Assembly (NCBI GenBank): GCA_964371045.1
Contig: CAYJMN010000003.1
Coordinates: forward strand, 1,459 to 65,458
Direction of reading: 5' to 3'
Origin: an uncultured Chromatiales bacterium
GTDB lineage: Bacteria; Bacteroidota; Ignavibacteria; SZUA-365
Length of the DNA stretch: 64,000 nucleotides
Each line of letters starts with the position of its first letter. Position 1 is the first letter of the stretch. Position numbers and translations under genes: made by a program. The notes beneath the pieces are model-generated. The model saw only the letters and a program-made list of their open reading frames with translations. It was not told the DNA's origin and searched no databases. Positions 5,574 through 46,160 of this stretch are shown piece by piece.

Positions 5574-5892
5574 TGACGCAATTGCGATAGATGTATCTTG
5601 TTCTCGGGACGCCCTCACTGTAGAGCTTGACGATGGGCGAACGATAACCGTTCCTTTGCAGTGGTTTCCTCGCCTCCTCGGTGCCACCGACAGACAGAAG
5701 AAACGATGGGAATTCATTGGAGGAGGGATCGGTATCCATTGGGAGGAAATCGATGAGGATATTTCTGTAGCGAGCCTCTTGACCCCCGAGCGGTTCATGC
5801 TGATGACTGAACTGGTTTCAGAACCACCGCCCCGCTCACAACGCAAATCGAATCCCGGCGAACGGCACGTTCCGCACAGGGCTAAAACCTGA
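5551..5892 (+). CDS. DUF2442 domain protein
   Basis: ATG at 5551 (MHTLVASNDAIAIDV...DGRTITVPLQWFPRLL...IHWEEIDEDISVASLL). Overlaps the DUF4160 gene by 23 nt, the usual two-gene arrangement for these families. Confidence 0.75.
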   Translation: MHTLVASNDAIAIDVSCSRDALTVELDDGRTITVPLQWFPRLLGATDRQKKRWEFIGGGIGIHWEEIDEDISVASLLTPERFMLMTELVSEPPPRSQRKSNPGERHVPHRAKT

Positions 5893-6079
5893 CAACTCAA
5901 CGAAGAGTTAGCGCTCAGCCCACGCGGATTCGACACGACGAGGTGTGCACTCACGTAGAACTCTTCCAGACCAGTCATGACGGCTCACGCGCGGGACGTC
6001 AGTCCGCTCGGAGCACGAAGCATGATAAGCGCAACTGGATTGGCACATCGCTTCGATCTCACTCTCGCTCAATCTATCT

Positions 6080-6763
6080 ATGGTACTGTCGACCGGGGCT
6101 ATGATGTGGGGAAATGATGCCGACAAGCACGAATTCGGCGCGCTCTGTCCGCTGTGGTACGCCGAAGATCACTCCGCGCGTGACCGCAAAAAAGCCGTGA
6201 AGCGCTTCATCCCACTTGTGAACCGCGGCTACGCGCCGGCACAATGCGCGCTCGCCATGGCTTACTTCGACGGGGCTGGCGTACGCCGCGACTATCCCCT
6301 TTGCTATCGCCATTTCCTTGCGTCGGCGGAGCAAGGGTATCCGAGCGCGGAGTGCATGATCGGCAACTTCTACGCCACCGTAAAGCCAAGGTACGATGTG
6401 TGCCAATACGACCCGGCACGGGGAGTGCAGTGGTGGCGGCGCGCTGCCGAAAACGGCAACGCCGGCGCGCAACTCAATCTGGCCACCGCTTGCAGCACGG
6501 ACAATGGGCTCGACGAGGACAACCTTGAGGCGTTTGTCTGGGCCTGCCTCGCCGTGCACTGCTCGGCAATCCGCTTCCGGCAAGCGGAGGTACTGCGCGA
6601 TCAGGTCGAGAGCAAGCTCGACGTCACGCAGCGCGCCTACGCCGATGCGCGCGTGTCGGACTTGAAGGCTGTGCTGCCGTTTCCCTGGTCAGATCACTTG
6701 CGGTACTGGATGAGCCTCGCGCAGGAGGTCGGAATCCTGACTAGCTCGAAGAAGGCGGAGTAG
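6080..6763 (+). CDS. Sel1-repeat (TPR-like) protein
   Basis: 227 aa with repeated A..GxxxAQxxLAxxYxxGxGVxxDY-like units (AQCALAMAYFDGAGVRRDY; AECMIGNFY; AQLNLATAC). Confidence 0.6.
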   Translation: MVLSTGAMMWGNDADKHEFGALCPLWYAEDHSARDRKKAVKRFIPLVNRGYAPAQCALAMAYFDGAGVRRDYPLCYRHFLASAEQGYPSAECMIGNFYATVKPRYDVCQYDPARGVQWWRRAAENGNAGAQLNLATACSTDNGLDEDNLEAFVWACLAVHCSAIRFRQAEVLRDQVESKLDVTQRAYADARVSDLKAVLPFPWSDHLRYWMSLAQEVGILTSSKKAE

Positions 6764-6938
6764 TTGAACGTCGTTCCTCCTGGAGTTGTCGGCGCGCTGA
6801 CTAACCCGCCCCGGTGGCGTTGCAGCGGAAGTTGCTCCGTGCCGCCGCTGATGCTGAGCGTCAGGCATCCTGATGATGCATCATGAGGATGAAGTGCAGT
6901 GTGTTGATTTTGTGTAGCCTAATGGCTACATTCCTGTT

Positions 6939-7229
6939 GTGTACGAGATTAGAAAGACAGACGTATTCGTGAAGTGGTTAGACTCTTTGGATGACCTCGG
7001 CGGTCGAGCGCGAATATTAGCCCGACTAAAGCGCTTGGAAGGAGGTCATCTTGGAGACGCAGCCGGTGTCGGCGGTGGAGTATCGGAAATGCGCATCCAC
7101 TATGGGCCGGGTTACCGAATTTACTACACCCGAGTTGGAAAGACGGTTATACTTCTGCTGGCTGGTGGCGACAAAAGCACGCAATCGGCTGACGTAAGGA
7201 GAGCAATCCGAATGACGGAAAATACATGA
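6939..7229 (+). CDS. addiction-module killer protein (RelE/ParE superfamily, TIGR02683-like)
   Basis: 96 aa. MYEIRKTDVFVKWLDSL...ARILARLKRLEGGHLGD...GVSEMRIHYGPGYRIYYTRVGKTVILLLAGGDKSTQSADV matches the putative killer family. Confidence 0.75.
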   Translation: MYEIRKTDVFVKWLDSLDDLGGRARILARLKRLEGGHLGDAAGVGGGVSEMRIHYGPGYRIYYTRVGKTVILLLAGGDKSTQSADVRRAIRMTENT

Positions 7230-7236
7230 GGCAAGC

Positions 7237-7614
7237 ATGGGTAAAATAAAAACATCCCGGTTTGATGTAGCGGAACATCTACGGACATCCGAAGAGATGG
7301 CGGCTTACCTGGAGGCGTGCATCGCGGAGGCACCGCAAGACGCAGCGTTCATCGCGAAAGCGGTGGGTGATATCGCGCGAGCAAAGGGTATGAGCCAGGT
7401 TGCTCATGATTCCGGTCTCTCGCGCGAGAGCCTCTATAAAGCGCTCTCCGGCGAGCGTAATCCGGATTTCGACACAATCCTCCGCGTCCTGTCGGCGCTC
7501 GGCCTACGGCTCCACGCCACAATCGAATCGTCGATACCAATGCCCAAAAAGCGCATGCAACCGACCCGAGCAAAACAAAGGACGAAACCTCAATCCCCTT
7601 CCGTGCGCGGCTGA
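7237..7614 (+). CDS. addiction-module antidote protein (HTH, TIGR02684-like)
   Basis: 125 aa. RFDVAEHLRTSEEMAAYLEACIAE...ARAKGMSQVAHDSGLSRESLYKALSGERNPDFDTILRVLSALGLRL. Starts 7 nt after the killer gene. Confidence 0.75.
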   Translation: MGKIKTSRFDVAEHLRTSEEMAAYLEACIAEAPQDAAFIAKAVGDIARAKGMSQVAHDSGLSRESLYKALSGERNPDFDTILRVLSALGLRLHATIESSIPMPKKRMQPTRAKQRTKPQSPSVRG

Positions 7615-8282
7615 TGCGCCAACCGTTCGGGCCAGCACAACATGCAAGAGATGAGTGCCAGCCAATGAGGATTTTCATCACAGGAGTCGGCTGTGTCGGC
7701 AAATCGACGATCGGCAAAAAACTGGCTGCCCTATTATGCCGTCCGTTCTTCGACCTGGACCTGGAGATAGAAAGCTATTTTGGAACGTCCATTGAGCGGC
7801 TCCAGAATCGTTTCCTGACGCCATACTCATATCGTGTAGAGGCTTCGAAGGCATTGATGCACGTCCTGTCGCGAGAGGACAGTCAGAACGCCATTATAGC
7901 CTTGCCGTCGAGCGGTCTCATGGGATCCTACTGGCGCATAGTGAAAAAGGTGAATTCCACGACGGTGGTTCTCGAAGATACACCGGAAAACATTCTGAAC
8001 AGGATCACGTTCTATAACATCGATTCCAGACTGATTGAGCGGACGTTGTCTGAAAGCGAGAAGCAGTATTACGTGAAAGAGATCCGAAGGGACATCAGCT
8101 ATTACCGCCCCTCGTACAAACGAGCTACCCTAACTGTCTCCATCGTGGGAATGGACGCCGATGAAGCTGCCGAGACGGTATTTCGCGTACTCATCGAATC
8201 GTTGCCGAATGAGTCGGGAGCGGAGCCCGAAGCATGCGCATCATATCGGACGGACTCCAGCGTCGCTTCGGCCAGCCGGTGA
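7614..8282 (+). CDS. P-loop NTPase, shikimate-kinase-like AAA family
   Basis: Walker A RIFITGVGCVGKSTIGKKLA. The ATG at 7614 overlaps the antidote stop (TGATG), suggesting translational coupling. An alternative start is the ATG at 7665. Confidence 0.6.
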   Translation: MRQPFGPAQHARDECQPMRIFITGVGCVGKSTIGKKLAALLCRPFFDLDLEIESYFGTSIERLQNRFLTPYSYRVEASKALMHVLSREDSQNAIIALPSSGLMGSYWRIVKKVNSTTVVLEDTPENILNRITFYNIDSRLIERTLSESEKQYYVKEIRRDISYYRPSYKRATLTVSIVGMDADEAAETVFRVLIESLPNESGAEPEACASYRTDSSVASASR

Positions 8283-8473
8283 TGCGCCGAACCACCTAAC
8301 CCGCGTGTCAAGCCAATCACGCACAGTCAGAAAAGCTGACACGCGCTGAACGTTAGGCGCATACAAGGACGATCTTTTCTTTAGTTCTGAGTCGAATTAT
8401 ATTGGGTATCAAATCAGCGGTAAAACTGAAATTCCAATCCCCTCTTGTGTCGCGTCCGAAGGTATAAATCCAA

Positions 8474-8821
8474 ATGAACGAAAACGGAATTTCGAAGGAA
8501 TACGAGGAACTGGTAAAAACCTTTCTCCGATTACTGGAAACCGACGCGGACGAGCAGGGTCTGGACGACAGCGAATGCATCGCTCGGATACGGCTTGTTC
8601 TTGAAGGGATTGTTGCCGACGTAACATCTCATGGCACCGATCCACAGCATGCAGAAATTTTTTTCCAGGAAATGAGAGACCATGCGCGTGAGCTTTTCAT
8701 CCAGCGCTGCAAGGACGCAAGGGCAAGATATGGAGATGATGAGCCTGAAGACGCCGATGAGGCACATGAGGACGGCGAATATTTCGATAAACTCTATCGT
8801 GGTGAAATTATTCCTTTATAG
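8474..8821 (+). CDS. hypothetical acidic protein
   Basis: 115-aa ORF, D/E-rich, about 50% GC, weak RBS. Confidence 0.35.
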   Translation: MNENGISKEYEELVKTFLRLLETDADEQGLDDSECIARIRLVLEGIVADVTSHGTDPQHAEIFFQEMRDHARELFIQRCKDARARYGDDEPEDADEAHEDGEYFDKLYRGEIIPL

Positions 8822-9174
8822 CGTCGGAATAGCACACAATTTTTCGGTTCTTCGTCTGGCTCGCGACCAATCCAGAGGCCAGTGGCGTCATCCCGGAGAA
8901 TTGTGGCTGTCGTACGGTACGTCAGTCCTGTGCCGGCACGGGCAAACGTGGCAGAGTTTTGTGGGAGCAAGTTCACCGCTCCCCTCCCAGCACCGCCCAG
9001 GCGCTTATCTTTATGCCAAACGCCATCCCGAAGTCGTACCTGACGCACTGGCTTGAAACAGAGGGTTAAGTTCTCGTGCAGTCGAACGTCCGAAACGCTG
9101 CTCTTGCAGGGACAATTCGGCGTCCGACATCCGGTCGCCGGTCACCTCAATCGTTCGCACACACGGAAAGAGGC

Positions 9175-9498
9175 ATGAAAGACATGGCCATACCCGAAAA
9201 ATACCAAGCCTGGATTGAGGCGCGGAAGCGTTTTAAGCTTACCCACGCCCAAATACAGATGGCCCGGGAACTCGGTATGAACCCCAAAAAATTCGGTAGT
9301 CTCGCCAACCACGATCAGGAGCCCTGGAAGGTGCCGCTCGCCGAATTCATCGAGGATCTTTATCAAAAGAACTTCAAGAAAGCGGAACCCGATATCGTCC
9401 GATCCATCGAAGACATAGCGAAGGCGGCGAAGGCAAAGAAGGACGGGAAGAAGGCACGAAAGCGAGCAAGATCCGCGGAGGAACCGGGAGATGCATAA
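9175..9498 (+). CDS. hypothetical protein (Lys-rich C-terminus)
   Basis: ATG at 9175 preceded by ggaaagagg. MKDMAIPEKYQAWIEARKRF..., C-terminal KAAKAKKDGKKARKRAR. Confidence 0.4.
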   Translation: MKDMAIPEKYQAWIEARKRFKLTHAQIQMARELGMNPKKFGSLANHDQEPWKVPLAEFIEDLYQKNFKKAEPDIVRSIEDIAKAAKAKKDGKKARKRARSAEEPGDA

Positions 9499-9881
9499 GG
9501 GTGCGAACACCGGTGTGCTTGTGACGGGCGATACTCTGCTTTGCGCACTGCGCGACCTGACATCAACTGGCACCCGCTCGTGACGCTGAACCTTGGAACG
9601 GCGAGAATACCATGAGCCCGCTGCCCCAACTGGTCGAGCGTGCGGACCGCCTGGGGGGCCGATTCCCGCTGCACGGCGGAATGCGCATCCATTTCACACC
9701 CTCGTGTGGCCGAACGGCGCAGACTTGGCCCCGGAGTTTCTCTTTAACAAATGTCGGATCGCCGCCTCACCCGCTTGTCGAGCCGACACGGTCTAAGGAT
9801 AATCTTCAACCCCAGGTTCTGTCCGCGAGCGGCTTGTGCGCGGGACGTCAGACTGACCAACAATAACGAGGAGTGACGTAG

Positions 9882-10196
9882 GTGGCTCTAATTACCGACC
9901 TTCGACATTTTCTGGATGAGCACGGTGCCATCCCCGACGAGATCACAGCGCCAGCGCTGAAAATCGCCCTGTTTCTGGGTTCTATCACCGGCTGGGTGAC
10001 GATTAACCCTACTCCGCGTTTCAAGGAAACCAACGTTCCATGCCGCTTTAGTCCTGGACGCAGACGGTGCCCCGGGAGGGTCTTCGCCCGTTTCGAGGTA
10101 GATGGCACTACGATTGCTTGGGAATGCCCTATTTGTGGCGATAATGGTTTAGTCCACGGTTGGGAAGGTACGATGTGGGATCGTAGTAAGGAATAA
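9882..10196 (+). CDS. hypothetical zinc-ribbon-like protein
   Basis: GTG start with gaggag RBS 8 nt upstream. Four Cys in C..C...C..C arrangement (PCRF..RRCPG...ECPICG). Confidence 0.4.
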   Translation: MALITDLRHFLDEHGAIPDEITAPALKIALFLGSITGWVTINPTPRFKETNVPCRFSPGRRRCPGRVFARFEVDGTTIAWECPICGDNGLVHGWEGTMWDRSKE

Positions 10197-10886: not shown

Positions 10887-11004
10887 CGGATCGGCCTCGT
10901 GACGCCGACGCCGGGGCCCGACCAACCCGCCGCAGCGGGTTAAGCGGCACAGAGACACTTGACAAGCTAGGGGGCTCCGTATAGGTTGATCATATACAGA
11001 CTTC

Positions 11005-11319
11005 ATGCAAATTCCAGAACATATCGAAGGTTTTCAGTGGGACCAGGCGAACAAGGAGAAACACAGGACCGGACGCAACGTCGCGTGGCAGGAATGCGAG
11101 GAGGTCTTCTTCAATGTACCGCTCTATACGTATCCAGACCTCAAGCACTCTGAGAAAGAATCTCGGCATGGAGCTCTTGGTCAGACGAACACCGGCAGAC
11201 TGCTGTTCGTCGTCTTCACGGCCCGGGGAACGGTGGTGCGGGTCATCTACGCACGGGATATGAATAAAAAGGAGCGCGAGGTGTACCATGAAAAAGCTCA
11301 AAAAGATTCCAACGTTTAG
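11005..11319 (+). CDS. brnT: BrnT toxin (DUF497 ribonuclease)
   Basis: 104 aa, intact. FQWDQANKEKHRTGRNVAWQECEEVF ... HSEKESRHGALGQTNTGRLLFVVFTARGTVVRVIYARDMNKKEREVY. Confidence 0.85.
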   Translation: MQIPEHIEGFQWDQANKEKHRTGRNVAWQECEEVFFNVPLYTYPDLKHSEKESRHGALGQTNTGRLLFVVFTARGTVVRVIYARDMNKKEREVYHEKAQKDSNV

Positions 11320-11581
11320 GACCGAGGACGAAGAACGAGAATTCTGGGCAACCCACGATTCGACCGAATATATGGACTGGTCGAAGGCGAAACCCACGCT
11401 TTTCTCGAATCTGAAACCGTCGAGCCGAACGATTTCGATTCGACTGCCGGAGTCCTTGCTCGAACACATTAAGCTCCTCGCAAACCAACGGGACGTACCC
11501 TACCAGTCGCTCTTGAAGATTCTGCTGGCGGAGAAGGTTCAGGAGACACTGCAGTCCGGTAAGCGGAAAAGCGTTGCTTGA
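11288..11581 (+). CDS. brnA: BrnA antitoxin (CopG-like)
   Basis: 97 aa. Overlaps brnT by 32 nt. EDEEREFWATHDSTEY...ISIRLPESLLEHIKLLANQRDVPYQSLLKILLAEKVQ. Confidence 0.8.
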   Translation: MKKLKKIPTFRTEDEEREFWATHDSTEYMDWSKAKPTLFSNLKPSSRTISIRLPESLLEHIKLLANQRDVPYQSLLKILLAEKVQETLQSGKRKSVA

Positions 11582-11698
11582 CCATTCTGATATGGAGTCA
11601 AAGACTTTTTGATCCGTGCACATCCGCATTCATCCGTGCCAATCCGCGTACGTATTCACACGCGGGTCGCGGCAATCAGCTACTCGTTTGCGGACCGC

Positions 11699-11953
11699 TC
11701 AGTTACGATATCGCAACTGAGCGATGAGGACGGCATCGGTCGTGACCTTATAGACGATACGATGCTCCGCTGTTATGCGACGTGACCAATAGCCGTTGAG
11801 CGCGTGGCGAAGTTTTTCCGGTTTGCCTATTCCCTCGAAGGGCGTACGCTGAATCTCCCGAATGAGTGTGTTGATGCGTAACAAGATTTTCTCATCATTT
11901 TTTTGCCAATGGAGGTAATCCTCCCAGGCAGCCGCAGAAAAAATCAAATTCAA
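11699..11953 (-). CDS. yoeB: YoeB toxin
   Basis: 84 aa. MNLIFSAAAWEDYLHWQKNDEKILLRINTLIREIQRTPFEGIGKPEKLRHALNGYWSRRITAEHRIVYKV is the canonical YoeB/Txe sequence. Confidence 0.9.
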   Translation of the reverse strand: MNLIFSAAAWEDYLHWQKNDEKILLRINTLIREIQRTPFEGIGKPEKLRHALNGYWSRRITAEHRIVYKVTTDAVLIAQLRYRN

Positions 11954-12201
11954 TCGATCAACTCCCGCCCGATCCCCTTTCCTTCTTCAAGTTCCAGCAT
12001 CGATGCGAGCAGGCGACGCGCGTTCGCGGGCGAACGCAACAAGTGCACCGTTTCCTCCAACGCCTCGTATTCTTCCAGGGAAAGAACAACGACGCTGTCG
12101 TTGTTGGCGCGTGTGACGATGACCGGCTGATGGTTGCTGCAAACGCCTTCCATTACTTTCGCCAGATTCTGCCGCGCCGCCGTGTATGTTATAGCTTTCA
12201 T
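11950..12201 (-). CDS. yefM: YefM antitoxin
   Basis: ATG at 12201 (cat on + strand). MKAITYTAARQNLAKVMEGVCSNHQPVIVTRANNDSVVVLSLEEYEALEETVHLL. 4-nt overlap with yoeB. Confidence 0.85.
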   Translation of the reverse strand: MKAITYTAARQNLAKVMEGVCSNHQPVIVTRANNDSVVVLSLEEYEALEETVHLLRSPANARRLLASMLELEEGKGIGRELID

Positions 12202-15694: not shown

Positions 15695-16007
15695 GGGATG
15701 ATTTAATCTTCTGTCTGTGGCGCCTGGCAGCTTTTAACAATGCCTTGTTCGGCTTTGCGGGATTTTCCAGCATACGCATAAATATTTCAGAATCGGCTAA
15801 TGAAAGCTCAGTAGCCCGATTCTCGCGTAATACACTCTGGGCGACTTTCAGGCTATTCGACAAAACGAAGCTCATAAGGCTTTGCCCCGTGACTGTAGCA
15901 GCCGCCTCGAGCAGAGTTTTTTGTTTCGCGTCAAGACGAAGATCAATTCTACGGTCTTTTGCTGGTTTCTCGTGTTTATCGTCGATTTGAAGGGCTAGTT
16001 CTTCCAT
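15684..16007 (-). CDS. DUF1778 antitoxin (TacA-like)
   Basis: ATG at 16007. MEELALQIDDKHEKPAKDRRIDLRLDAKQKTLLEAAATVTGQSLMSFVLSNSLKVAQSVLRE is typical DUF1778. Confidence 0.8.
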   Translation of the reverse strand: MEELALQIDDKHEKPAKDRRIDLRLDAKQKTLLEAAATVTGQSLMSFVLSNSLKVAQSVLRENRATELSLADSEIFMRMLENPAKPNKALLKAARRHRQKIKSSHGL

Positions 16008-16093
16008 TTCTATGCTCCTATGCGAAATAATCAGATCAACATGCCGCATTGACTACTGAGTGCAGCAACAGATTGTTTTATCGTCCAATCTAT

Positions 16094-16190
16094 ACGGAGC
16101 AATTCCGTAAACTGACAAGAATAAGGACAGGATACGGAAAATATCCGTAATGATTCAGTCTAACGTCAAGAGTACGGCATATTTCCGTAT
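16094..16190. promoter_or_regulatory. three TACGG-N7-CCGTA palindromes at exact 40-bp spacing
   Basis: tacggagcaattccgta (16094-16110), tacggaaaatatccgta (16134-16150) and tacggcatatttccgta (16174-16190). They lie 87-180 bp upstream of the tacA-like start. Confidence 0.5.
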
Positions 16191-16436
16191 AAGTCAAGAG
16201 TCTTTTCTCCCCCCATTTTTTCCGAGCTGAGGCGTGAGTTCCTGAGATGGGCGGAGTGCGGGGAAGCCTTCTCTTGTTTACAATGCAGCTTTCAAGTCAC
16301 CAGCGATCAAGCAGGAACAGATGATTTTGATGCCCGCTTGATGCTCACTTATTGCCAATGTGGATGCCTTATAACTCCTTTCGCCCCTGCCTCTCATCTT
16401 CGTCGATGGGAGTTTGTCCACCAATATATTCGAGTT

Positions 16437-16865
16437 CTAATCCCACAGGTACCTCGGCATCGTACGGACGAGTTCGTCCGCCTTCGAACGAACCGCTCTT
16501 TCGATCCGCTCAGACGAAACCCCCTGCTCCTCAAGTTCCATCGACTTCGATGTTCGGAGGACAATCGTGAGTGCGACCTGTCTCGCTCTCTTCTCGATCA
16601 TCGTATCAAGAGATGCTTCCCTTGGAATGAGGACGTGGACGAGATCCAGATCAAGAGCATTCGCGGCCTGCCGAAGTGATCTCAACGTGATCGATCCGTC
16701 CGCTTCCCGCTCCTCCATCTCCATCACGCTCTGGGGCGATATCTCCAGCCTGGCCCCAAGTTGACGGAGCGACATCCCGAAGGCAGTCCGAAAGGCATTG
16801 AGCCAGCCTCGTTCCGGAACTGCGGATATCAGATCGGAATGTCTATATTGAGCGTAAATGTTCAT
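16437..16865 (-). CDS. mobile mystery protein A (HTH, TIGR02612-like)
   Basis: ATG at 16865. ...GWLNAFRTAFGMSLRQLGARLEISPQSVMEMEEREADGSITLRSLRQAANALDLDLVHVLIPREASLDTMIEKRARQ. No partner mystery protein B (Fic) gene is adjacent. Confidence 0.7.
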   Translation of the reverse strand: MNIYAQYRHSDLISAVPERGWLNAFRTAFGMSLRQLGARLEISPQSVMEMEEREADGSITLRSLRQAANALDLDLVHVLIPREASLDTMIEKRARQVALTIVLRTSKSMELEEQGVSSERIERAVRSKADELVRTMPRYLWD

Positions 16866-17338
16866 GTTACAGCGGACAATCTGATGAGTATTCCCCTGTT
16901 TCTTGTTGAGGTAATGCAAGCTGTATGGCGTGAAGAGACTACTCCTTGACCCCAGGGACATTCGTTTATCCTCGATCAAGCCTTGCATCGTCAGCAAATT
17001 CCAATTATGTTTGCAACAAGCTGGTTTCAAGCCATATTTGACCCATAATTGGACTGAGTTGGCGGAGCTGGGTGCGTTGAAGAAAACGCACGGTCACAGG
17101 TCGATCAATGCAGCCGCTGATGAATTATCAGGAAACGTCAGGTCACGGAAGTTCAATGACCACGGGAATGCCATGATGTCACAGAAACAAGCATGCGGAG
17201 AATTCAATCCCCATCCGATGATCTCTGAAGTCGGCCAGCGTAATCTCCGTCATGTTTGAGAGTGAGGCCGCAATGATTTTACTGGTTCGTCCAATGATAC
17301 AAATCTCAAACCTGTCCCACAAGAATCACTGAAGTGCC

Positions 17339-17401
17339 TTCAGTTCTCCGAATGAACATTTGTGCTGAAAAGCCCGCCCATCGCAAATCTGCAAAACGTT
17401 A
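17339..17401. repeat. 63-bp direct repeat, left copy
   Basis: ttcagttctccgaatgaacatttgtgctgaaaagcccgcccatcgcaaatctgcaaaacgtta. 60/63 identical to 18875-18937. Confidence 0.85.
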
Positions 17402-17424
17402 GCGCCAACCTAAAAATCAATAAC

Positions 17425-18750
17425 ATGAAAAAGCAAATATTACGGATGATCAAAATCACCGCGTTTGTATTTTTCCCCGTATTTTTTTCCCCGTCACTTG
17501 TAGTTTCGCAGACTGCAGATTCTTTTTTCGTAGCTGGCATTCATCCCACAGCATCTCTTCAATCCACAACAACCGGAAAACAAATAATGACCTTATTTTC
17601 ATGGAAAGGAAGACTCTATTCCGGATACGGAGATTATGGCGCAAATACCGGGCCCATAAATATTTATTCTTTTTCGCCGGATTCGTCCACCTTTACATAC
17701 GAAGCACAGGCAAATACCGAAGCAATCTATAATTATCGTGCCATTAACGGAATGTTATATGCTCCTTCTATCGACCGCAAATCATATGCAATTCCTGGGG
17801 ATTATATAAAGGAGGATAGCAACGGACTTTGGACTAATTATAATTTTCTCAGTAATTCAACGCATGTATATGATGCTGCAAGGCTCAATGATACCGTATT
17901 ATTCATGGTAGGCTCGCAGTCTGATAGAGCAGTAGTATGGAAAAGCAGCAATAATGGCCTAACCTGGAAAGTAATTTTAACTGTTTCTGCGATCAGTGGA
18001 AAAACTGGCGACTTTGCAAGATTTTATTTCGCAGGCATGTATAATGGTAATTTATATGTGCAGGCAAGGGATTATTACGGATCACTTCATCTCAACTCAG
18101 AAGTATATAACGGTGTTAACTGGACCAATGGACCTTCGCTATTTCCGTCATCTAATTTGCAGGGTTGGAAACCGGAAGTATTTGCCGGAAAGCTTGTTTA
18201 TAGAAGCTGGGAACCTGGATTGTCTTCTCAACTCATAACTTTTGATGGTACAAATAATATATCTGCAGGATTATATGTACTTGACTGTTTTATTCATTCC
18301 AATTATTATTATGCACTTGTAGATTCGGGTTTTGGCGTAATAAATCTAAGACGAACAACAGACCTTATCAGATGGGAAAATATATTAGCTGTGCCAGCGA
18401 AGAGCCGCAGTCTTGCTATTCTGAATGACAAACTATTTATCGGTACTACTGATTCAAAAATTTTACAATTCACCAAATCCGTTTCTTTATTAACTACTTC
18501 TGTCCCAATTCTGAAACCAGATGAATTCCAGCTAACTTTTTATCCCAATCCGGTAACTGATTTTATTCAGTTGGCCTTTTTTGAATCCCATGATATTTTT
18601 GAAGTTGATATAATAAACATACATGGTGAAATAGTTCTTAAAATAAGAAACGAAAACAAGGTCAATGTTTCAGAATTATCAAGCGGGATGTATTTTCTTA
18701 AAATAAAACAGGGGAATAATTTCATTATGCAAAAATTCATTAAACAATAA
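17425..18750 (+). CDS. secreted propeller-like protein with T9SS C-terminal sorting domain, low-GC origin
   Basis: ATG at 17425 with a signal peptide. BNR-like SSNNGLTWKV. C-terminal FYPNPVTDFIQL...SSGMYFLKIKQGNNFIMQKFIKQ. GC about 33% versus about 60% in the flanks. Confidence 0.8.
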   Translation: MKKQILRMIKITAFVFFPVFFSPSLVVSQTADSFFVAGIHPTASLQSTTTGKQIMTLFSWKGRLYSGYGDYGANTGPINIYSFSPDSSTFTYEAQANTEAIYNYRAINGMLYAPSIDRKSYAIPGDYIKEDSNGLWTNYNFLSNSTHVYDAARLNDTVLFMVGSQSDRAVVWKSSNNGLTWKVILTVSAISGKTGDFARFYFAGMYNGNLYVQARDYYGSLHLNSEVYNGVNWTNGPSLFPSSNLQGWKPEVFAGKLVYRSWEPGLSSQLITFDGTNNISAGLYVLDCFIHSNYYYALVDSGFGVINLRRTTDLIRWENILAVPAKSRSLAILNDKLFIGTTDSKILQFTKSVSLLTTSVPILKPDEFQLTFYPNPVTDFIQLAFFESHDIFEVDIINIHGEIVLKIRNENKVNVSELSSGMYFLKIKQGNNFIMQKFIKQ

Positions 18751-18874
18751 TTGATGCAAAAATAATCTGTGACACAGGCGATATAACATCTCGGGAAGAA
18801 CGGGCTGGCTATAACAGCACATTTGCAATAGGCGGGGTTTCGTTCTCCGCAGACAGTTTTATGGTTAGAGAAAG

Positions 18875-18937
18875 TTCAGTTCTCCGAATGAACATTTATG
18901 CTAAAAAGCCCGCCCATCGCAAATCTGCAAGACGTTA
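18875..18937. repeat. 63-bp direct repeat, right copy
   Basis: Matches 17339-17401 with 3 mismatches. Confidence 0.85.
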
Positions 18938-19009
18938 TGGGTAATCCCCACGGTTCAGGTCAATATGTCCGGTTGCTCTCTCATAAAACGGGGCACTGGA
19001 GTGTAGACC

Positions 19010-19306
19010 ATGAAACAACCAAACCCACGGCGTGAAGAGATTCTGCAGCGTTTGAATCAGCCTGGCGCTCCATCTGTCGGAGTGATATCCGAGGAAACCG
19101 GTACTCCAAAAGCTACATTGTACTATTGGTTGTCACGTCGCGATAATGGCGGCAACCGCTCAATGTCAAGACAGGAAGGAAATCCCGGCATGCGCAAGCG
19201 TAGCAAACCCCGTTCCCCGTCTACAAAACTTCGCCTCGTTTCCGAGAGCATGGAACTCGAAGGGGATGCACTTCGCAGCTGGGCCCACGACGGCATCAAA
19301 GCCTGA
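19010..19306 (+). CDS. transposase-like HTH protein fragment (IS3-OrfA-like?)
   Basis: 98 aa. ATLYYWLSRRDNGG and RLVSESMELEGDALRSW resemble IS-family OrfA HTH/leucine-zipper N-termini. Overlaps a convergent ORF, so the call is weak. Confidence 0.3.
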   Translation: MKQPNPRREEILQRLNQPGAPSVGVISEETGTPKATLYYWLSRRDNGGNRSMSRQEGNPGMRKRSKPRSPSTKLRLVSESMELEGDALRSWAHDGIKA

Positions 19307-19801
19307 TGCTTCGATCTCCACGTCCTCATCCTCTATCGGTTCGTCACCAACTTCTTTGCAATAATCTTCTTCAGAGTGTGTCTCGGTTGTTACAACATCA
19401 ACAGGTATATCCGACCACATCCGCATCACGAGCCACAACCCAGCTTGTTCGACCTGTACGAGAAATTTAGCAAGACTGTTGATGACTGCGAGGTTGAGCT
19501 TTCTGAACTCCTCACTGTCCACGCCGCCTAGTTCCATGCACCGAGTGCCATATATGCAGACCATCGAGCGGAACTGCTCGATCATTTTGGCGTGAGTCGG
19601 CGAGATGGGCTGGTGTGTGGCGACATGGATAGTATCGGCGATGACGAGGTAGTTTAGCGTATCAACGCCGGTGGAGAGTTGGAAGAACGTATGCTCCACA
19701 TTTTCATTCAACTGGTTCATGGGTTCTGCTCCTGTCTCTGGTATCATAATACCTATTTGAGATTCATCCGCTTGTACAAACTCTCCAATGCAAGTCCGCA
19801 T
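19166..19801 (-). CDS. hypothetical protein
   Basis: 211-aa ORF in a lower-GC (about 48%) segment. Confidence 0.3.
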   Translation of the reverse strand: MRTCIGEFVQADESQIGIMIPETGAEPMNQLNENVEHTFFQLSTGVDTLNYLVIADTIHVATHQPISPTHAKMIEQFRSMVCIYGTRCMELGGVDSEEFRKLNLAVINSLAKFLVQVEQAGLWLVMRMWSDIPVDVVTTETHSEEDYCKEVGDEPIEDEDVEIEASGFDAVVGPAAKCIPFEFHALGNEAKFCRRGTGFATLAHAGISFLS

Positions 19802-20019
19802 CCACGAACCAATAATTCCACCATCTGCGACAGCAGAGAACGAAAGAATGAGGAAACTGCTCTAGAACGTATCCTATTTCTCGTCGCATCTAAATGAACC
19901 ATGGAGACGATATATTCGGGGTTACACAAATATACAATAATTTAATGACTTTTCCTAAACCGCTGTTGATCTCCTCGGTACAACAGTCCACTGGGATGGA
20001 TACCAATTCGAGGTTCTAC

Positions 20020-20721
20020 TTATGCACTCCCGATGTCGGTGGTCACTGTTACTGCACGTAACTCTGTCTTATGAAGATATGCATCAACTGTTCTTGGCAT
20101 TGTGGACAACATCTTAGAAAGTTCGTCCAAAGATGGCGGACGCTGATTAGTCGAATCCGTCACGTTTTCATGCTTCCTAGAAGAACTGAATCCGCCGAGC
20201 TGTTTCGAAAGGAATTTTCTTTTGAGCAGATCCATCATTCTGTCAAGCATTTTCACTGCGTGTAGGTCTCCTTCGTGCACTGCTCTCTTCCGCTCCGCAT
20301 CCAGATCTCCAATCATTGAATCAAGAGTCTCACGGTCGTCAGGAACATCCTCATTCTCAATGCTCAGCTCAGTGTCCAATGAGAATGTTTCGAGCAGCCT
20401 ACGAGGATCTCTAGGTGCATCATTCAGTTCTTCCTTGAGAACAGAATCTTTAGCCGTAATCTTATGGGGCATGACGATCACTGAGTCGAAACCAGTTCTC
20501 TCCGCAATTGGCGTAGGTGCGTCGCTGAGCTTGGATCCTCCGTGAACCGTCCCGATGTTCGGATAGTCAGCTAAAATCGTTTCCTGAGCCTCTGCGAGCG
20601 TCACCACTACGTTGTTACACTGATGTGGCATCTGTACCTCGGCATCTTCAAGCAGAGTGCTTTCATCGTCAGCGGATAGGCAGCGGTCTGAACCTTTATG
20701 CACGCCGTCGGGGCCATCCAT
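20020..20721 (-). CDS. hypothetical acidic protein
   Basis: 233-aa ORF in a low-GC (about 45%) segment. Confidence 0.4.
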   Translation of the reverse strand: MDGPDGVHKGSDRCLSADDESTLLEDAEVQMPHQCNNVVVTLAEAQETILADYPNIGTVHGGSKLSDAPTPIAERTGFDSVIVMPHKITAKDSVLKEELNDAPRDPRRLLETFSLDTELSIENEDVPDDRETLDSMIGDLDAERKRAVHEGDLHAVKMLDRMMDLLKRKFLSKQLGGFSSSRKHENVTDSTNQRPPSLDELSKMLSTMPRTVDAYLHKTELRAVTVTTDIGSA

Positions 20722-20846
20722 GGCTTCGTATCCAGAATCGGCTGCGAGCCGTACAAGGATTGAAACTGATCCAATAATACTCTTTCTACAAGTTCCGCAT
20801 GCTTCGGAATCGTGAGAATCGAATCATGGACGGTAAAGATCGGTAC

Positions 20847-22082
20847 CTATGGATGATGGTTCATGAGGAACACGCAGGCGTGATCGATCACCATCTTAGA
20901 CTCCATCCTTTGAAGCTTGATCGCCAGTTTGTTGTGTCCATTGATCTTTAGAGTCCGAATCATTTTATACACATGCGGGAACCTTGTCATGAAGATTCTT
21001 TCATTCTCAGATTTCCAGCGGTTCTTGCCGAACAGGATCGGCATGAACTCCGCCTTCGCGGTATCTCGGTCAGTGTTCCAGAGATTGGCAAGGCCTTCGT
21101 AGAAGACACCAGCGTGATTCAGTTCGATGTACAACACAATGTTCTCAGCGACATTCAGCCAGCGTTCTCCGGTACATACATCGGGGCAGAGTCCTTTCTC
21201 CGTGGAGTCCACTGCTGTACAAGTGAGCGGCTCAGACAGAGGAGAACCACAGGTGTCAGTAGACATGTCTTCCGCATGAGGTAATTCACTGGTACATATG
21301 AAGGGTTTTTCTGCGTGTTCATATTCGCTGGTACATATGAAGGCTTCTTCTACGAGAACAATTTCACTGGTACATATGAAGGGTTTCTCTGCGTGTTCAT
21401 CTTCGCTGGTACATATGAAGGGATCTTCATCGTGTTGCAATTCACTGGTACATATGAAGGGATCTTCGTGTTGACGCTGAGCTATCTGAAATTCTGTTCT
21501 TGTGCTTTCATTTTTGCAATTTACTGGTACATATGTGAAGGGTATGACACAGGGGACATCAATCTTTGTGTTCTTAATATCTTTAAGAGATATATTTTCA
21601 TTAGATATAACTTCCTTAATGCTAATCTGTTTCTCTGATCTTTCAATTCTTGTTTTAATACTTCTATCACTAATATCATTGTTGTTTGATAAGAGGAACG
21701 CCTTCTTTGATGTTATAGGGGTTTCAACACCACGTTTGATCACCAAAGAAAGGAAATATGGTTGAGAATTTTTAATGTCAACTGCGACAAGATTCTCACC
21801 TGCGAAGGAAACGAATGACCGCATCACTCTTGCGGTTCGGGTAATGGAGGAATGGAATCTGAATGATGTCGCATCACGTCTGCCACCGTTGTGGTTCGAG
21901 TAGGCAGTCTGAATCAGAATCCAGCAATTCTTTCGATGGACATCCATCCTTTCTGCGGCCTCCTTTGACTTCGCTGTATCCAGAATGAGCCGTTCATCGG
22001 CAAGCCACCTGTTGAGGTACCGAGTGACTTCATCCTGTGGTTTCTCATCATAGATCACTTTTTTCTTAATGAATTTGACCAC
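20847..22082 (-). CDS. hypothetical replicon-like protein with 13-aa tandem repeats (..PFICTSE..)
   Basis: 411-aa ORF (GTG start at 22082 or a later ATG). Contains six perfectly conserved 16-19-bp DNA repeats at 39-bp spacing next to an AT-rich tract. GC about 42%. Confidence 0.5.
   Translation of the reverse strand: MVKFIKKKVIYDEKPQDEVTRYLNRWLADERLILDTAKSKEAAERMDVHRKNCWILIQTAYSNHNGGRRDATSFRFHSSITRTARVMRSFVSFAGENLVAVDIKNSQPYFLSLVIKRGVETPITSKKAFLLSNNNDISDRSIKTRIERSEKQISIKEVISNENISLKDIKNTKIDVPCVIPFTYVPVNCKNESTRTEFQIAQRQHEDPFICTSELQHDEDPFICTSEDEHAEKPFICTSEIVLVEEAFICTSEYEHAEKPFICTSELPHAEDMSTDTCGSPLSEPLTCTAVDSTEKGLCPDVCTGERWLNVAENIVLYIELNHAGVFYEGLANLWNTDRDTAKAEFMPILFGKNRWKSENERIFMTRFPHVYKMIRTLKINGHNKLAIKLQRMESKMVIDHACVFLMNHHP
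21287..21543. repeat. iteron-like array: 6 copies of cactggtacatatgaaggg
   Basis: Cores at 21289, 21328, 21367, 21406 and 21445 with exact 39-bp period, plus a variant at 21524. Spacers are diverged while cores are 100% identical, including synonymous positions. Followed by a roughly 25%-GC tract at 21545-21720. Confidence 0.6.
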
Positions 22083-22109
22083 GATGGGATCGTTCTGGAA
22101 GCGTGGATA

Positions 22110-22240
22110 ATAAAGCCTATTCTCGCATGAAGTCGTCTAAGATAGTGATAATAAAGGAGTTAGCTCAAAATCACCAAAAAAAACAAATCTGCGATTTTGG
22201 CTCATTTTCGCCACTTTTTCACCGATGAAAATACATCTTA
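22110..22240. repeat. 131-bp direct repeat R1, left copy
   Basis: ataaagcctattctcgcatgaagtcgtctaagatagtgataataaaggagttagctcaaaatcaccaaaaaaaacaaatctgcgattttggctcattttcgccactttttcaccgatgaaaatacatctta. About 96% identical to 24172-24302. A 28-bp motif tttaaccac..tttttaaccagttcg also recurs at 22313-22341 and 24123-24162. Confidence 0.85.
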
Positions 22241-22626
22241 CCTCGTCACTTTTAAGCCAAAAATTGGCGTTTTTGATACTGTTTACGCCGTTTTTCAGCC
22301 GACATAAAAAACGATTTAACCACCTTTTTAACCAGTTCGGAGCGTGAAACTGTTCGAGAAGAAGCAAGCATCCGTCAGTTAAATCGGTGAACCCTCTCAG
22401 TATGACAATTCAGGTTCCGAGCGAGGGCGGGCCCGTCCACACTCCGCCATCAGGAGACCAGCCAGGCGGGACTCCATGCCACTACGGAACGCATGGGCGT
22501 GATCGAGATGGATGTTGGGACGGTTTGTTTTTGGGATAAACCGCTCGTATGATTGAATGTTATTCCAAGGTAGATTCTCTTTGATTCTACACATCAAACA
22601 GAGCACCAACATTACGAGACCAATTC

Positions 22627-23922
22627 TTGATACCACAGTTAGTCCGAACGGGATATCTTTTCCTGATGCTGTTTCTCACTTCGCAACTGTGCCGAGCACA
22701 ATCCGAAGCATTCAGTGATCAACGTGAATCACTACGGCACTCGTTTGTTATAAATTCTGGTTGGGCACGGCAACAAAGCGGGACCTCATTCACATGTTTC
22801 GGGATTTCATTCAGAGATAAAACAAATGGTTTTGTCGTATGCCGGGAGGCGTTGATTCTCGGCACAACAGATGGCGGCGATACATGGGTTGATCGATCCA
22901 ACTGGAAGGTACCCAATCGGGAGCTAAAGGCAGTCACCTTTGTAAATTCAAATCGAGCTTTTGCCTGTGGCGGAGGGAGTAGCATTTACAGAACAACCGA
23001 TGGCGGTGCAAATTGGACGAGTCAAGGATTCTGGCCAATGTACGGCTTCACAGCGATCTCATTCTGCGATACTTTACATGGCTGTGCGGTAGGGTGGGGT
23101 GGGACTATTCTTCGCACGACTGATGGGGGAGATCACTGGGTACAACAGACGAGCGGAACGACAGAATGGCTATTGGATGTTGACCTCCAGAGTCCGGAAA
23201 TTTGCACCGTCGTCCTGCAGTACGGTGTTCTCCGCACTACCGACGGTGGCAACACCTGGGTTATGAATCGAGATGTAGGTGGAAACGGTATCTCATTTAC
23301 AGATAATCTCGTCGGAACCATCATTGGAGGGTACGGCATGATTTTCCGGACAACCGACGGGGGAAATACTTGGACGCAACAGGCAAGTGGGACGACCATT
23401 CATCTCCAGGCAGTTTCTTTCTCAGACTCGTCTAATGGAACGGTTGTCGGTCCAGATGGGCTTATACTGAGAACCACAGATGGCGGAGATCACTGGACTA
23501 CGCAATCAAGTGGAACCATTGCATGGCTCTTTGATGTACAGATGATCGATGCGAATACCGTGACAGTAGTCGGGGACACAGGTATCATCCTCCGCACCAC
23601 CACCGGCGGTGTGACCTGGGTCGAGGAGCCGAAAAGTGCCCCTTCCCTTTTCCACCTCGGACAGAACTATCCCAATCCAGTCGCCGCGAGCACCAACATA
23701 CCCTTCTCCATCACGAAGCAAGAGCATGTGACGCTCAGCGTACACGACATACTTGGGAGACAGGTTGCTGTGCTGGTGGACGAGGAGCGTGAGATGGGAT
23801 CGCATGCAGTCCCCTTCGATGCGACTGGGCTTGCTTCGGGGATGTACTTCTATGTGCTTCGAACCGGGAGTGCTATTGAGACGATGAAGATGGTGCTGGT
23901 GAATCCAGCGGCTGGATTCTGA
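22627..23922 (+). CDS. BNR/Ycf48-like repeat protein with T9SS C-terminal sorting domain
   Basis: TTG start at 22627 (tool M). Signal peptide LFLMLFLTSQLCRAQS. Repeats of ILRTTDGGxxW. The last roughly 100 aa are nearly identical to the CTD of 12767-14917. Confidence 0.8.
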   Translation: MIPQLVRTGYLFLMLFLTSQLCRAQSEAFSDQRESLRHSFVINSGWARQQSGTSFTCFGISFRDKTNGFVVCREALILGTTDGGDTWVDRSNWKVPNRELKAVTFVNSNRAFACGGGSSIYRTTDGGANWTSQGFWPMYGFTAISFCDTLHGCAVGWGGTILRTTDGGDHWVQQTSGTTEWLLDVDLQSPEICTVVLQYGVLRTTDGGNTWVMNRDVGGNGISFTDNLVGTIIGGYGMIFRTTDGGNTWTQQASGTTIHLQAVSFSDSSNGTVVGPDGLILRTTDGGDHWTTQSSGTIAWLFDVQMIDANTVTVVGDTGIILRTTTGGVTWVEEPKSAPSLFHLGQNYPNPVAASTNIPFSITKQEHVTLSVHDILGRQVAVLVDEEREMGSHAVPFDATGLASGMYFYVLRTGSAIETMKMVLVNPAAGF

Positions 23923-24171
23923 TCGGACAATTGGGCTGACAGGCAGTCAATCACGTCAGAGTAGTGGAGAACCTCATATTTCCGAAACAATCGCAACATG
24001 TGAGTTGCCTTCTACGCCGCATCCCGTCGGGTTTTGAAATCGTTGTTATTCAGGATAAGTCAGCAATCGGTGAGCGGATAGCGATGGAAATATTCCATAG
24101 GTGTAAATACAAAGCGGGTAAAAATTTAACCACTTTTTACCCGCTTTTTAACCAGTTCGAAATGTCGCTGA

Positions 24172-26433: not shown

Positions 26434-27324
26434 ATGGATCCCCGCATGAGTTCAATAAAAATTTCCAACCCCGACGGCGTGACCGAACGCGTCCGACGCC
26501 CGGATTGGCTGAAGGTGAAAGTTCCGCTTGGAACAAAGTTTTCCGAGATTCGCCGCCTCGTTGACGAGCAGAGGCTGAACACCGTATGCGAAGACGCACG
26601 TTGCCCAAACATGGCGGAGTGTTGGAACCGCGGGACGGCGACATTCATGATTCTCGGCGACGTATGCACCCGCTCCTGCGGTTTCTGTTCGGTGAAAACC
26701 GGGCGTCCGCTCGATCTGGATCTGGACGAGCCGCGGCGCGTGGCCGATGCCGTGGTCAGCATGCGCTTGCGCCACACGGTCATCACATCCGTCAACCGCG
26801 ACGAATTGCCCGACGGAGGGGCTGGCATATTCGCGGCGACAATCCGTGCGATACGCGATCGCGTTCCCTCGTGCAGTATCGAAGTGCTGACGCCGGATTT
26901 CCAGGGAATCACCTCCGCGATCCAAACGGTGATTGATGCGCGTCCCGATATTTTCAATCATAACACTGAGACGGTCCCGCGATTGTACCGGCGCGTGCGT
27001 CCGCAGGCGAAGTATCAACGCTCGCTCGACCTGTTGAATATGTGCAAGGAGCAGGGATTGCGGACCAAGACAGGCATCATGCTCGGACTCGGGGAACAGG
27101 AAGATGAACTTGTGCGGGTAATGGAAGATTTACGCGGGATCGGCGTCGACATATTGACGCTGGGCCAATACCTTCAACCGACGAAAGCGCATCTGCCGGT
27201 GGAGCGCTACGTGACGCCGGAAGAATTCGTGAACTGGAAAAGGGTCGGCCTGGAACTTGGTTTCGCCCACGTCGAATCCGGGCCACTGGTGCGTTCGAGC
27301 TACCATGCGGATGAGCAAGCTTGA
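26434..27324 (+). CDS. lipA: lipoyl synthase
   Basis: [41 protein letters not shown] (two Cys clusters), [16 protein letters not shown] and SSYHAD. An alternative ATG is at 26446. Confidence 0.92.
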
Positions 27325-27340
27325 ACGAGTGGCGAGTGAC

Positions 27341-27580
27341 GATTTACGATTGACGATTTACGATTGACGATTTACGATCTACGATTGACGAGTGACGATT
27401 TACGAGTTACGACTTGGATGCTATGGATGGTTGGAGCAGCGAATGGGTGACACAGTAGGCACGACATGCACCATCACCAGACCTCGTCAATCGTAAATCG
27501 CACCAAATCGTACATCGTAAATCGTAAATCGTAGATCGTAGATCGTAAATCGTAAATCGTAGATCGTACACCGTAAATCG
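27341..27580. repeat. inverted arrays of a tacgatt heptamer (long imperfect hairpin or cruciform)
   Basis: Left arm 27341-27410 is (gacgatttacgatt)n. Right arm 27488-27580 is (aatcgtaaatcgta)n, its reverse complement. A roughly 75-nt unique loop lies between them. Confidence 0.8.
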
Positions 27581-27608
27581 AAAAAGGATTCCTCGCGGAA
27601 TCCTTTTT
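27581..27608. terminator. bidirectional rho-independent terminator
   Basis: aaaaaggattcctcgcggaatccttttt: a 7-bp stem with an A-run before and a T-run after. Lies between convergent lipA and secG. Confidence 0.7.
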
Positions 27609-27632: not shown

Positions 27633-28103
27633 CTACTTGCCGGGGGCATTGTCCGAGGGGGGAGTTTGCGCAGGCGTATTCCGTCCGGGGGCCTGCTGTC
27701 CGGGGGTTTGTCCTGCCGGGGTTTGTCCTGCAGGGGTTTGTCCTGCAGGGGTTTGTCCTGCCGGGGTTTGGGTCGGCTGTTGGGTTTGCATCTGCTGCGA
27801 CTTCTGCACGGGCGTCATAGGTTGATCAGCCGATCCACGCTGAATGATGCTCTCTTCCGTACCCTGGGTAGGGAGGAAGAACATATTGAGCATGAAAATC
27901 AGCACGGTCATGCCGATCGCAAGTCCCCACGTTGTTTTCGCGAGAATATCCGATGCATGTCGGACACCGAGCATGCTGCCGAAACCGCCGCCTGCGCCAC
28001 CAAATGCACTGGAAAGACCGCCGCCCTTGGGATTCTGCATCAGAATCGCGATGGTCATGAAGATTCCAGCGAGTATTATCAGCAGCATCAAAATCGTGTA
28101 CAT
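27633..28103 (-). CDS. secG: preprotein translocase subunit SecG with a Q/P-rich C-terminal extension
   Basis: ATG at 28103. MYTILMLLIILAGIFMTIAILMQNPKGGGLSSAFGGAGGGFGSMLG is canonical SecG. The C-terminal half contains QTPAGQTPAGQTPAGQTPAGQTPG repeats. Confidence 0.85.
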   Translation of the reverse strand: MYTILMLLIILAGIFMTIAILMQNPKGGGLSSAFGGAGGGFGSMLGVRHASDILAKTTWGLAIGMTVLIFMLNMFFLPTQGTEESIIQRGSADQPMTPVQKSQQMQTQQPTQTPAGQTPAGQTPAGQTPAGQTPGQQAPGRNTPAQTPPSDNAPGK

Positions 28104-46049: not shown

Positions 46050-46160
46050 GTTCTTCGTCGTTCGTTCTTCGTTCCGAGTTCTTCGCTCTTCGCGCTTTGC
46101 TCTTCGCGCTTTGCTCTTCGCGCTTTGCTCTTCGCTCTTTGCTCTTCGCTCTTCGCCCGG
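46050..46160. repeat. tandem 15-mer (gctcttcgcgctttg) x5 in the B-C intergenic/promoter region
   Basis: 46083-46157 holds five tandem copies, preceded by a ttcg-rich stretch. Confidence 0.8.

Follow-up and report, generated by a model that had tools for sequence, protein, structure and literature searches.

An inverted pair of heptamer arrays behind lipA in an uncultured Bacteroidota/Ignavibacteria-like bacterium, probably a lineage-specific long simple sequence repeat

In heterocystous cyanobacteria, a few fixed heptamers, the short tandemly repeated repetitive sequences (STRRs), are spread genome-wide, mostly as direct arrays, and STRRs and long simple sequence repeats (SSRs, with units of 5-11 nt) were reportedly studied by Mazel in 1990 and by Mrazek in 2007. 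Bacterial heptamer repeats have been known since 1990; they are the most over-represented long SSRs and are functionally unexplained. Polymerase slippage has been proposed as the cause of the over-representation of heptamers in bacteria, and the cyanobacterial STRR heptamers, the oldest example, are said there to have expanded by slippage and not for a function (PMC4692102, PMC4679880). Xanthomonas genomes carry 70-75 convergent inverted GGGAATC pairs each, near stop codons, which differ in length between species and for which no function was identified (Rehm et al. 2015, PMC4692102). Arrays of TAACTGA, in up to 43 copies, occur in Beggiatoaceae, Cyanobacteria and some Bacteroidetes; close relatives lack them at the corresponding intergenic position, contig ends often fall within them, and they are nearly always direct and placed mostly just upstream of start codons, with a proposed role in translation (MacGregor 2015, PMC4679880). 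Here we describe an inverted pair of heptamer arrays that lies between lipA and secG in a 64,000-nt stretch of DNA (the window; contig CAYJMN010000003.1 of assembly GCA_964371045.1) from an uncultured bacterium. We consider it likely, with a probability of roughly 60%, that this element is a non-coding, lineage-specific long SSR, an inverted heptamer-array pair in the 3' untranslated region (UTR) of lipA.

Anatomy and reality of the lipA-secG element

The first repeat unit of the element starts at position 27325, directly after the TGA stop codon of lipA (27322-27324). A first-pass annotation, made by a model from the letters of the window, had correctly located the element in the lipA-secG spacer, but had let it begin at 27341. 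On the plus strand, the left array (27325-27412, 88 nt) consists of about 12.6 NNN-ACGA units, as found by Tandem Repeats Finder (TRF), as direct-repeat family D1, by pattern search and from the unit list; TRF gives 12.6 copies of period 7 and also scores a period of 14 (5.7 copies, 86% matches), and the variable bases are GTG, TTT, TTG, TCT or GTT. A non-repetitive spacer of 71 nt (27413-27483, strandless; folding and blastn-short) forms the loop of the hairpin, in agreement with the unique loop noticed at first. It is followed by the right array (27484-27584, 101 nt, plus strand) of about 14 TCGT-NNN units, detected by TRF, as direct-repeat family D2 and as inverted pairs I1-I22. Here, TRF gives 14.0 copies of period 7 and also scores a period of 28 (2.8 copies, 92% matches); the variable bases are AAA, AGA or ACA, CAA occurs once, and one unit is interrupted by CACCAAA. 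The right array is the reverse complement of the left-array family, and the unit is best written as a constant core of 4 nt (ACGA/TCGT) with three variable bases. Both TRF and the inverted-repeat search thus bear out the initial description of two reverse-complementary arms built from tandem heptamers, although over a somewhat wider range of positions. More specifically, the best inverted repeat, a long hairpin in the lipA 3' UTR (27340-27580, plus strand; inverted-repeat search and folding), has arms at 27340-27417 and 27503-27580 that are 78 nt long, 85% complementary and separated by 85 nt.

The base of this long hairpin adjoins, without a gap, the stem of an intrinsic terminator (27581-27608, strandless; inverted pair I23 and terminator analysis) that is common to the convergent lipA and secG. 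The terminator has the form AAAAAGGATTCC-tcgc-GGAATCCTTTTT, with a perfect 12-bp stem, a 4-nt loop, AAAAA upstream and a T-run downstream. As an A-run precedes the stem and a T-run follows it, the terminator can act in both directions, which is how it had been read from the start.

The element is far beyond chance, as confirmed by a search of the window with the pattern ACGATNNACGATNNACGA (at most 2 mismatches), in which 20 of the 21 matches fell within the element, with 0.86 expected from shuffles. Compared with shuffled controls, RNA of the plus strand folds at -133.2 kcal/mol (z -11.8), RNA of the minus strand at -125.3 kcal/mol (z -11.1) and DNA of the element at -82.7 kcal/mol (z -12.2); the very long hairpin envisaged in the first-pass annotation is therefore possible in RNA of either strand or in single-stranded DNA. 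A cruciform in duplex DNA, envisaged along with it, is unlikely given the spacer of 71-85 nt and the 15% mismatches, judging from what is generally known of cruciform extrusion. The element has each of the features that define a long SSR, namely a unit of 5-11 nt in tandem, an extent beyond chance, a non-coding position and variation between relatives.

The central 79 nt behave differently from the arms: on either strand, they fold less stably than their shuffled controls (z +1.7 and +1.5). A blastn-short search for relatives of the spacer over 1.1 Mb of gathered sequence matched the same locus only. The positive fold scores, together with this lack of relatives, indicate a plain loop and no hidden structured RNA, which bears directly on the earlier suggestion of a discrete small RNA (sRNA). 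An independent sRNA gene would consist of a hairpin precursor with its own promoter, ending at the terminator. A strong terminator does lie downstream, and the left arm contains one sigma-70-like match (TTGACG-17-TACGAT); this sole promoter-like match is, however, generated by the repeat itself and thus a by-product, and promoters of the Fibrobacterota-Chlorobiota-Bacteroidota (FCB) group differ from the sigma-70 consensus used. Rfam gave no match in the whole window at gathering thresholds, and in permissive mode its sole match at the locus was a chance match of the terminator (E 0.93). The only open reading frame (ORF) within the element, 54 aa on the minus strand and made of repeat, had no Pfam match. 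With a promoter made of repeat, no sequence conservation in relatives (see below) and an unstructured centre, an sRNA gene finds no support, and we give it hardly any credence.

The element is real DNA and not an artefact of assembly. The whole lipA-secG spacer is 100% identical to the window in five contigs (L164/L167, L165, L166 and L168; L numbers are our labels for the gathered loci) from four separate SPAdes assemblies of the European Nucleotide Archive (ENA), and a fold-back artefact is excluded since the arms are only 85% complementary and not exact copies. Three short Logan contigs stop inside the left arm, as expected of a repeat that breaks de Bruijn assembly. The exact LipA protein was found on more than 20 public contigs and the exact SecG protein on 12.

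The genes around the element are lipA, secG and a gene for a 114-aa protein. By translation and Pfam (LIAS_N and Radical_SAM), the lipA coding sequence (26434-27324, plus strand) encodes lipoyl synthase; the secG coding sequence (27633-28103, minus strand) encodes 156 aa and was identified by translation and by Pfam SecG. The two genes are convergent, and the 308-nt spacer between them holds the left array, the unique stretch, the right array and the terminator. The C-terminal (PAGQT)x5 tail of SecG corresponds to a 15-nt tandem repeat (27703-27770, 4.5 copies, 96% matches by TRF), and the locus thus has a coding tandem repeat right beside the non-coding heptamer element.

Turnover of the lipA 3' flank in relatives

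The LipA proteins closest to that of the window, with 80-88% identity, are encoded in metagenome-assembled genomes (MAGs) of a Bacteroidota/Ignavibacteria-like kind. In a neighbour-joining tree of LipA, the window forms a clade with L169 and L172 (clade A), and the sisters L005 and L174 belong, with L178, to clade B. A scan of JGI metagenomes returned only relatives with at most 68% LipA identity, too distant for strain comparison. Behind lipA, a short unique stretch and a terminator are all that is present in L006, L007, L008, L176 and L210, and there is no array in L004, L172, L177 and L179. In L005, (AAATGAC)x4, a 9-nt loop and inverted units precede the terminator; L174 has AAATGAC AAATGGC AGATGGC AGAT in one arm and ATC TGCCATT TTCCATT TGCCATC TGCCAT in the other, followed by the terminator and secG. 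The heptamer hairpins of these two loci fold with z-scores of -8.9 and -7.9. In L178, GGATGTC/GGATGAC units are present and the contig ends within the array, and in L211 (1000-1215) four tandem GC-rich 22-nt hairpins and CCCTATC and CTTCTCG heptamers lie before the terminator. The flank of L169, a 5.24-Mb MAG, carries 7.5 tandem 156-nt hairpin units with arms of GCGGAT-type 9-10-mers. A terminator stands at the same position with another stem sequence in L005, L006, L007, L008, L174, L176, L210 and L211.

These comparisons reveal that the TACGATT sequence is not conserved at the orthologous site and that its turnover is rapid, in line with the earlier idea of a slippage-prone element, since the repeats turn over quickly between relatives. 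At the same time, the flank behind lipA repeatedly carries hairpins whose arms are short repeats, in several independent forms, a recurrence that is biased because all comparison loci were sampled around lipA, so that the lipA flank cannot be called special. The first-pass annotation had held that absence of conservation would speak against its proposal; such absence is found for the sequence but not for the architecture.

The 156-nt units of L169 (GCA_027493955.1, contig JAOSJT010000001.1) form two blocks in opposite orientation, one of about 20 copies (6300-9400, ~3 kb) upstream of the 114aa-lipA operon and one of 7.5 copies (10960-12150, ~1.2 kb) downstream of lipA. Each unit folds into a full-length hairpin, and both blocks are satellite-like. 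That a member of clade A has 27 such units in opposed blocks around this operon may suggest that the window element is a non-autonomous mobile or amplifiable hairpin inserted behind lipA, similar to a REPIN, a bacterial interspersed mosaic element (BIME) or a miniature inverted-repeat transposable element (MITE), the arms of which would be repetitive by chance. A fragment of the L169 family does lie elsewhere in the window (11593-11665, nhmmer, E 2e-5), a second long repeat-armed hairpin of similar size is found at 2962-3185 with a motif that recurs at 2317 and 2916, and removal of 3 nt (CGG) from the L172 decamer ACG[CGG]ATTT gives the window heptamer ACGATTT. The likeness between decamer and heptamer was, however, noticed post hoc. 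The pattern search found no second copy of the TACGATT-type heptamer family in the 64-kb window, and no element of this type occurs in ~1 Mb of related loci. Furthermore, the loop is unique, the nhmmer profile of the L169 unit has no match at 27325-27584, and the flanks, GCAAGCTTGA on the left and AAAAAGGATT on the right, share no target-site duplication. No recombinase, transposase, RAYT or DNA-binding gene adjoins the element according to Pfam at the locus. A mobile hairpin is accordingly improbable in our view.

The same searches bear on several specific candidates. A MITE was rejected because the inverted arms are accompanied by neither a target-site duplication nor another copy in the sequence searched, and a repetitive extragenic palindrome (REP) or REPIN is not supported, as neither the window nor 1.1 Mb of loci contains a second copy of arms or loop. 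Nor is there support for a recombination site, as first suggested, with no adjoining recombinase, no target duplication and no second copy in the window. Lastly, the window has no GC-skew switch, on which ground a replication origin or terminus was rejected.

Other repeats were observed in the window and in L172. The hairpin at 2962-3185 has arms at 2962-3028 and 3119-3185 (67 nt, 78% complementary) made of the nonamer repeats CGCAGAGAG/CTCTGCGCC, a 90-nt loop and a folding energy of -108 kcal/mol (z -7.9), and is flanked by the motif AGATTGTGCGGATCTCC, with three occurrences nearby at 2317, 2916 and 2960. Between 1020 and 4123, one strand has five copies of the motif GCGTTACATTCCCCTC, each of them within TCTTTGCG/CTCTGCG octamer arrays; the region at 1-5 kb is a patchwork of short-period repeats among small genes that include a toxin-antitoxin-like pair. 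Paralogous ORFs of about 127-129 aa lie in a tandem duplication of 478 nt at 4275-5270 (2.1 copies, 81% identical). The region from about 16000 to 24000 has a low GC content (44-47%, compared with 55-60% elsewhere) and is possibly acquired DNA; within it, a 39/78-nt tandem repeat (21284-21467) lies in a 411-aa ORF. One heptamer array, (TCTTCGC)x11 at 46080-46156, is single and unpaired; its higher-order period is 14 nt, and the two tandem genes on either side of it, of ~1,600 aa, have DUF7948 and a type IX secretion tail. In L172, a direct array of the decamer ACGCGGATTT (9740-9920) lies between the 114-aa gene and lipA, and 2.5 kb without genes (5265-7659) are taken up by a repeat family of ~450 nt that has 23-nt sub-repeats.

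Two paralogous genes for CopG-family, ribbon-helix-helix (RHH) antitoxins are present in the window (1844-2137 and 11288-11581). Short-period arrays follow each of them at a distance of 25-45 nt (2183-2260 and 11605-11650), and the second of these arrays (ATCCGnnnnn x4) matches the 156-nt hairpin-unit family of L169 (E 2e-5). A scan of viral contigs for ACGATNN arrays yielded 30 IMG/VR loci, including one recurring phage family and a giant-virus MAG. (TTGACGA)n arrays are found in L183, L187, L191, L193, L196, L199, L201 and L207-L209, the array of the phage family adjoining an A-rich tract, and the giant-virus MAG carries (TTTACGA)x17 (L202, 1905-2020). The ORFs around two of the viral ACGA-type arrays included no informative neighbour.

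Heptads of this kind raise the question of a protein-binding array, in which one dimer would occupy each 7-bp unit of an operator, a centromere-like site or a nucleoid-organising site. The window element does combine a constant core of 4-5 nt with variable flanks in direct and inverted orientation, TTGACGA and TTTACGA heptads do form arrays in the 30 viral contigs, phage family included, and each CopG/RHH gene is followed by a short-period array. The site between the 3' ends of convergent housekeeping genes, on the other hand, offers no promoter to control. The CopG-type genes of the window occur only at the two positions given above, away from the heptamer element, with no DNA-binding gene adjoining the latter, and the window has no second array of the heptad. 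Moreover, orthologous loci carry other heptamers or none, which a sequence-specific binder would not tolerate. We therefore hold a binding array to be very improbable.

Arm histories and possible effects of the hairpin

The two arms have separate histories, and each has expanded independently since their common origin. The left arm alternates TTT and TTG units, which accounts for its 14-nt period, and the super-unit of the right arm is 28 nt long (ACA-AAA-AAA-AGA). GTG and GTT variants are confined to the left arm and TGT, in the reading of the complementary strand, to the right arm; a perfect complement of the left-arm motif TTTACGA-TTGACGA is found only in the two innermost right-arm units (27484-27500; I16 and I17). 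Watson-Crick pairing reaches 72-82% at every 7-nt register of the arms, and mismatches compatible with G·U pairing number 2 on each strand. Register and G·U counts thus revealed neither register-specific compensation between the arms nor a strand-specific RNA signal. As registers pair equally well and G·U pairs are equal on the two strands, the complementarity stems from a common ancestry of the units and not from position-specific compensation.

A tandem-repeat survey of 975 kb (161 sequences from the FCB group, Planctomycetota and others) showed that 7 is the commonest period, with 34 arrays compared with 26 for period 9 and 14 for period 6. Nearby pairs of arrays of the same heptamer were all inverted (in the window, L005, L015, L060, L073, L161 and L174) and none was direct. 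The window element is the largest by far, with 12-14 units per arm compared with 3-6 in the other paired arrays. In L161 (2331-2412), CTTTTTCTC comes directly after a hairpin with heptamer arms (ATTGCCG/CAATCGG), which for this reason looks like a terminator itself.

If the element is a long SSR, as we prefer to think, it may have begun as a short heptamer tract of which an inverted copy was made, for instance by a template switch, after which each arm would have grown separately by replication slippage or unequal exchange. Inverted pairs would persist because deletion between direct repeats cannot collapse them, as it can direct pairs. RNA polymerase leaving lipA would cross the whole element before reaching the terminator, and the lipA mRNA would then carry, at its end, an imperfect ~80-bp hairpin stacked on that of the terminator. 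If such an end has an effect, it would depend on structure and not on sequence, and could be that of a barrier to 3' exonucleases, of extra pausing or termination, or of an RNase III target. Such an effect can probably be dispensed with, as close relatives have no more than the terminator here.

Some observations weigh against this explanation. Of 15 family-level relatives, about 7 have a short-repeat hairpin behind lipA, which could mean that a hairpin is selected for at this place. The sisters L005 and L174 changed both arms together (GAC/GTC to GGC/GCC), and such a joint change needs gene conversion between the arms or compensatory selection, and not pure independent slippage. Finally, the length polymorphism that the first-pass annotation had proposed to look for was not found among the sampled assemblies of the population, as the five contigs from four assemblies are identical, so that hypermutability is not demonstrated on that timescale.

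These points lead to the possibility of a selected cis-acting RNA structure that would tune the 3' end of lipA by mRNA stabilisation, reinforced termination or an RNase III site, with repeat arms as an easy evolutionary route to a long stem of tunable length. A second clade (L005 and L174) also has heptamer-armed hairpins between its lipA stop codon and terminator; these hairpins and their coordinated two-arm changes argue for a selected structure, as do the inverted orientation of every paired array found, the terminator-like hairpin of L161 with its CTTTTTCTC, and the gapless junction of the window hairpin with the terminator stem. The coordinated changes can, however, also be produced by gene conversion between inverted repeats, and the inverted-only pattern is also explicable by deletion of direct pairs. 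In addition, at least nine relatives do without such a hairpin and have a terminator or unique sequence only, and the window element itself, with 15% mismatches between its arms, displays neither register-specific compensation nor a G·U strand bias. On balance, we regard a selected structure as unlikely, but as a possibility that deserves some weight.

A wider proposal, which we put forward only as a doubtful one, is that the FCB group and Planctomycetota have a general, so far undescribed class of heptamer-stem 3'-end hairpins, with arms kept complementary by inter-arm exchange through template switching or gene conversion. In that case, stem length in 7-bp steps would tune termination strength or mRNA stability, and the lipA element would be the most expanded example so far. 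Were the hairpins selected, they would represent a simple and evolvable way of setting 3'-end structure; if they are not, the locus is a clear case of neutral repeat growth, which also breaks short-read assemblies.

Comparison with known repeat classes

REPs, BIMEs and REPINs are extragenic palindromes of proteobacteria. REPs, which are conserved, 20-40 nt long and moved by RAYT transposases, number in the hundreds; they gather at 3' ends and between convergent genes, and in 3' UTRs they can stabilise the upstream mRNA. Like REPs, the window element is hairpin-forming extragenic DNA between convergent 3' ends. Unlike them, it has arms of tandem heptamers, is single-copy in the sequence searched and has no RAYT gene at its locus. 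A second comparison is with omega, the RHH protein of the inc18 plasmid pSM19035, which binds direct and inverted WATCACW heptads, 7-10 of them in promoter regions adjoining the omega gene. Like those of the omega sites, the 7-bp units of the window element adjoin one another, have a conserved core and occur in direct as well as inverted orientation, but its ~26 heptads lie at convergent housekeeping 3' ends with no RHH gene adjoining. An omega-type RHH operator was rejected on account of this position, the neighbours being LipA and SecG.

The likeness to heptamer SSRs is of another kind. As in STRRs, tandem heptamers lie in non-coding DNA and have the over-represented SSR period; the window heptamer is, in contrast, private to a bacterium of the FCB group and arranged as a hairpin. 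With TAACTGA arrays, the element has in common that its heptamers are intergenic and absent in relatives and that contigs end inside them, and it differs in its unit, in the inverted arrangement of its arrays and in its position downstream of a stop codon. As in the Xanthomonas pairs, one heptamer is present on opposite strands, convergent, close together (here in 78-nt arms 85 nt apart), intergenic and after a stop codon. The Xanthomonas units are, however, G-rich and G-quadruplex-forming, prefer four units and occupy ~190 sites per genome (PMC4692102), whereas the window unit (ACGATTT, ACGATTG and similar) is AT-rich without the G-run of a G-quadruplex type, has 12-14 copies per arm and is found at one site within 64 kb.

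To this field the locus adds a very large inverted example from a lineage that is uncultured and Bacteroidota/Ignavibacteria-like, a small set of comparisons at one orthologous site that runs from no repeat through short heptamer hairpins and the giant hairpin to kilobase arrays of 156-nt units, and evidence that paired arrays are, within the survey, always inverted across distant phyla. Among the by-products of the analysis, these lipA-flank comparisons and the rule that arrays pair only in inverted orientation are of most use; the element itself is, on present evidence, a curiosity more than a new system. In conclusion, measured against the systems described above, it represents neither a conserved RNA gene nor any recognisable system, but an unusually large instance of an already described and functionally unexplained class of repeats.

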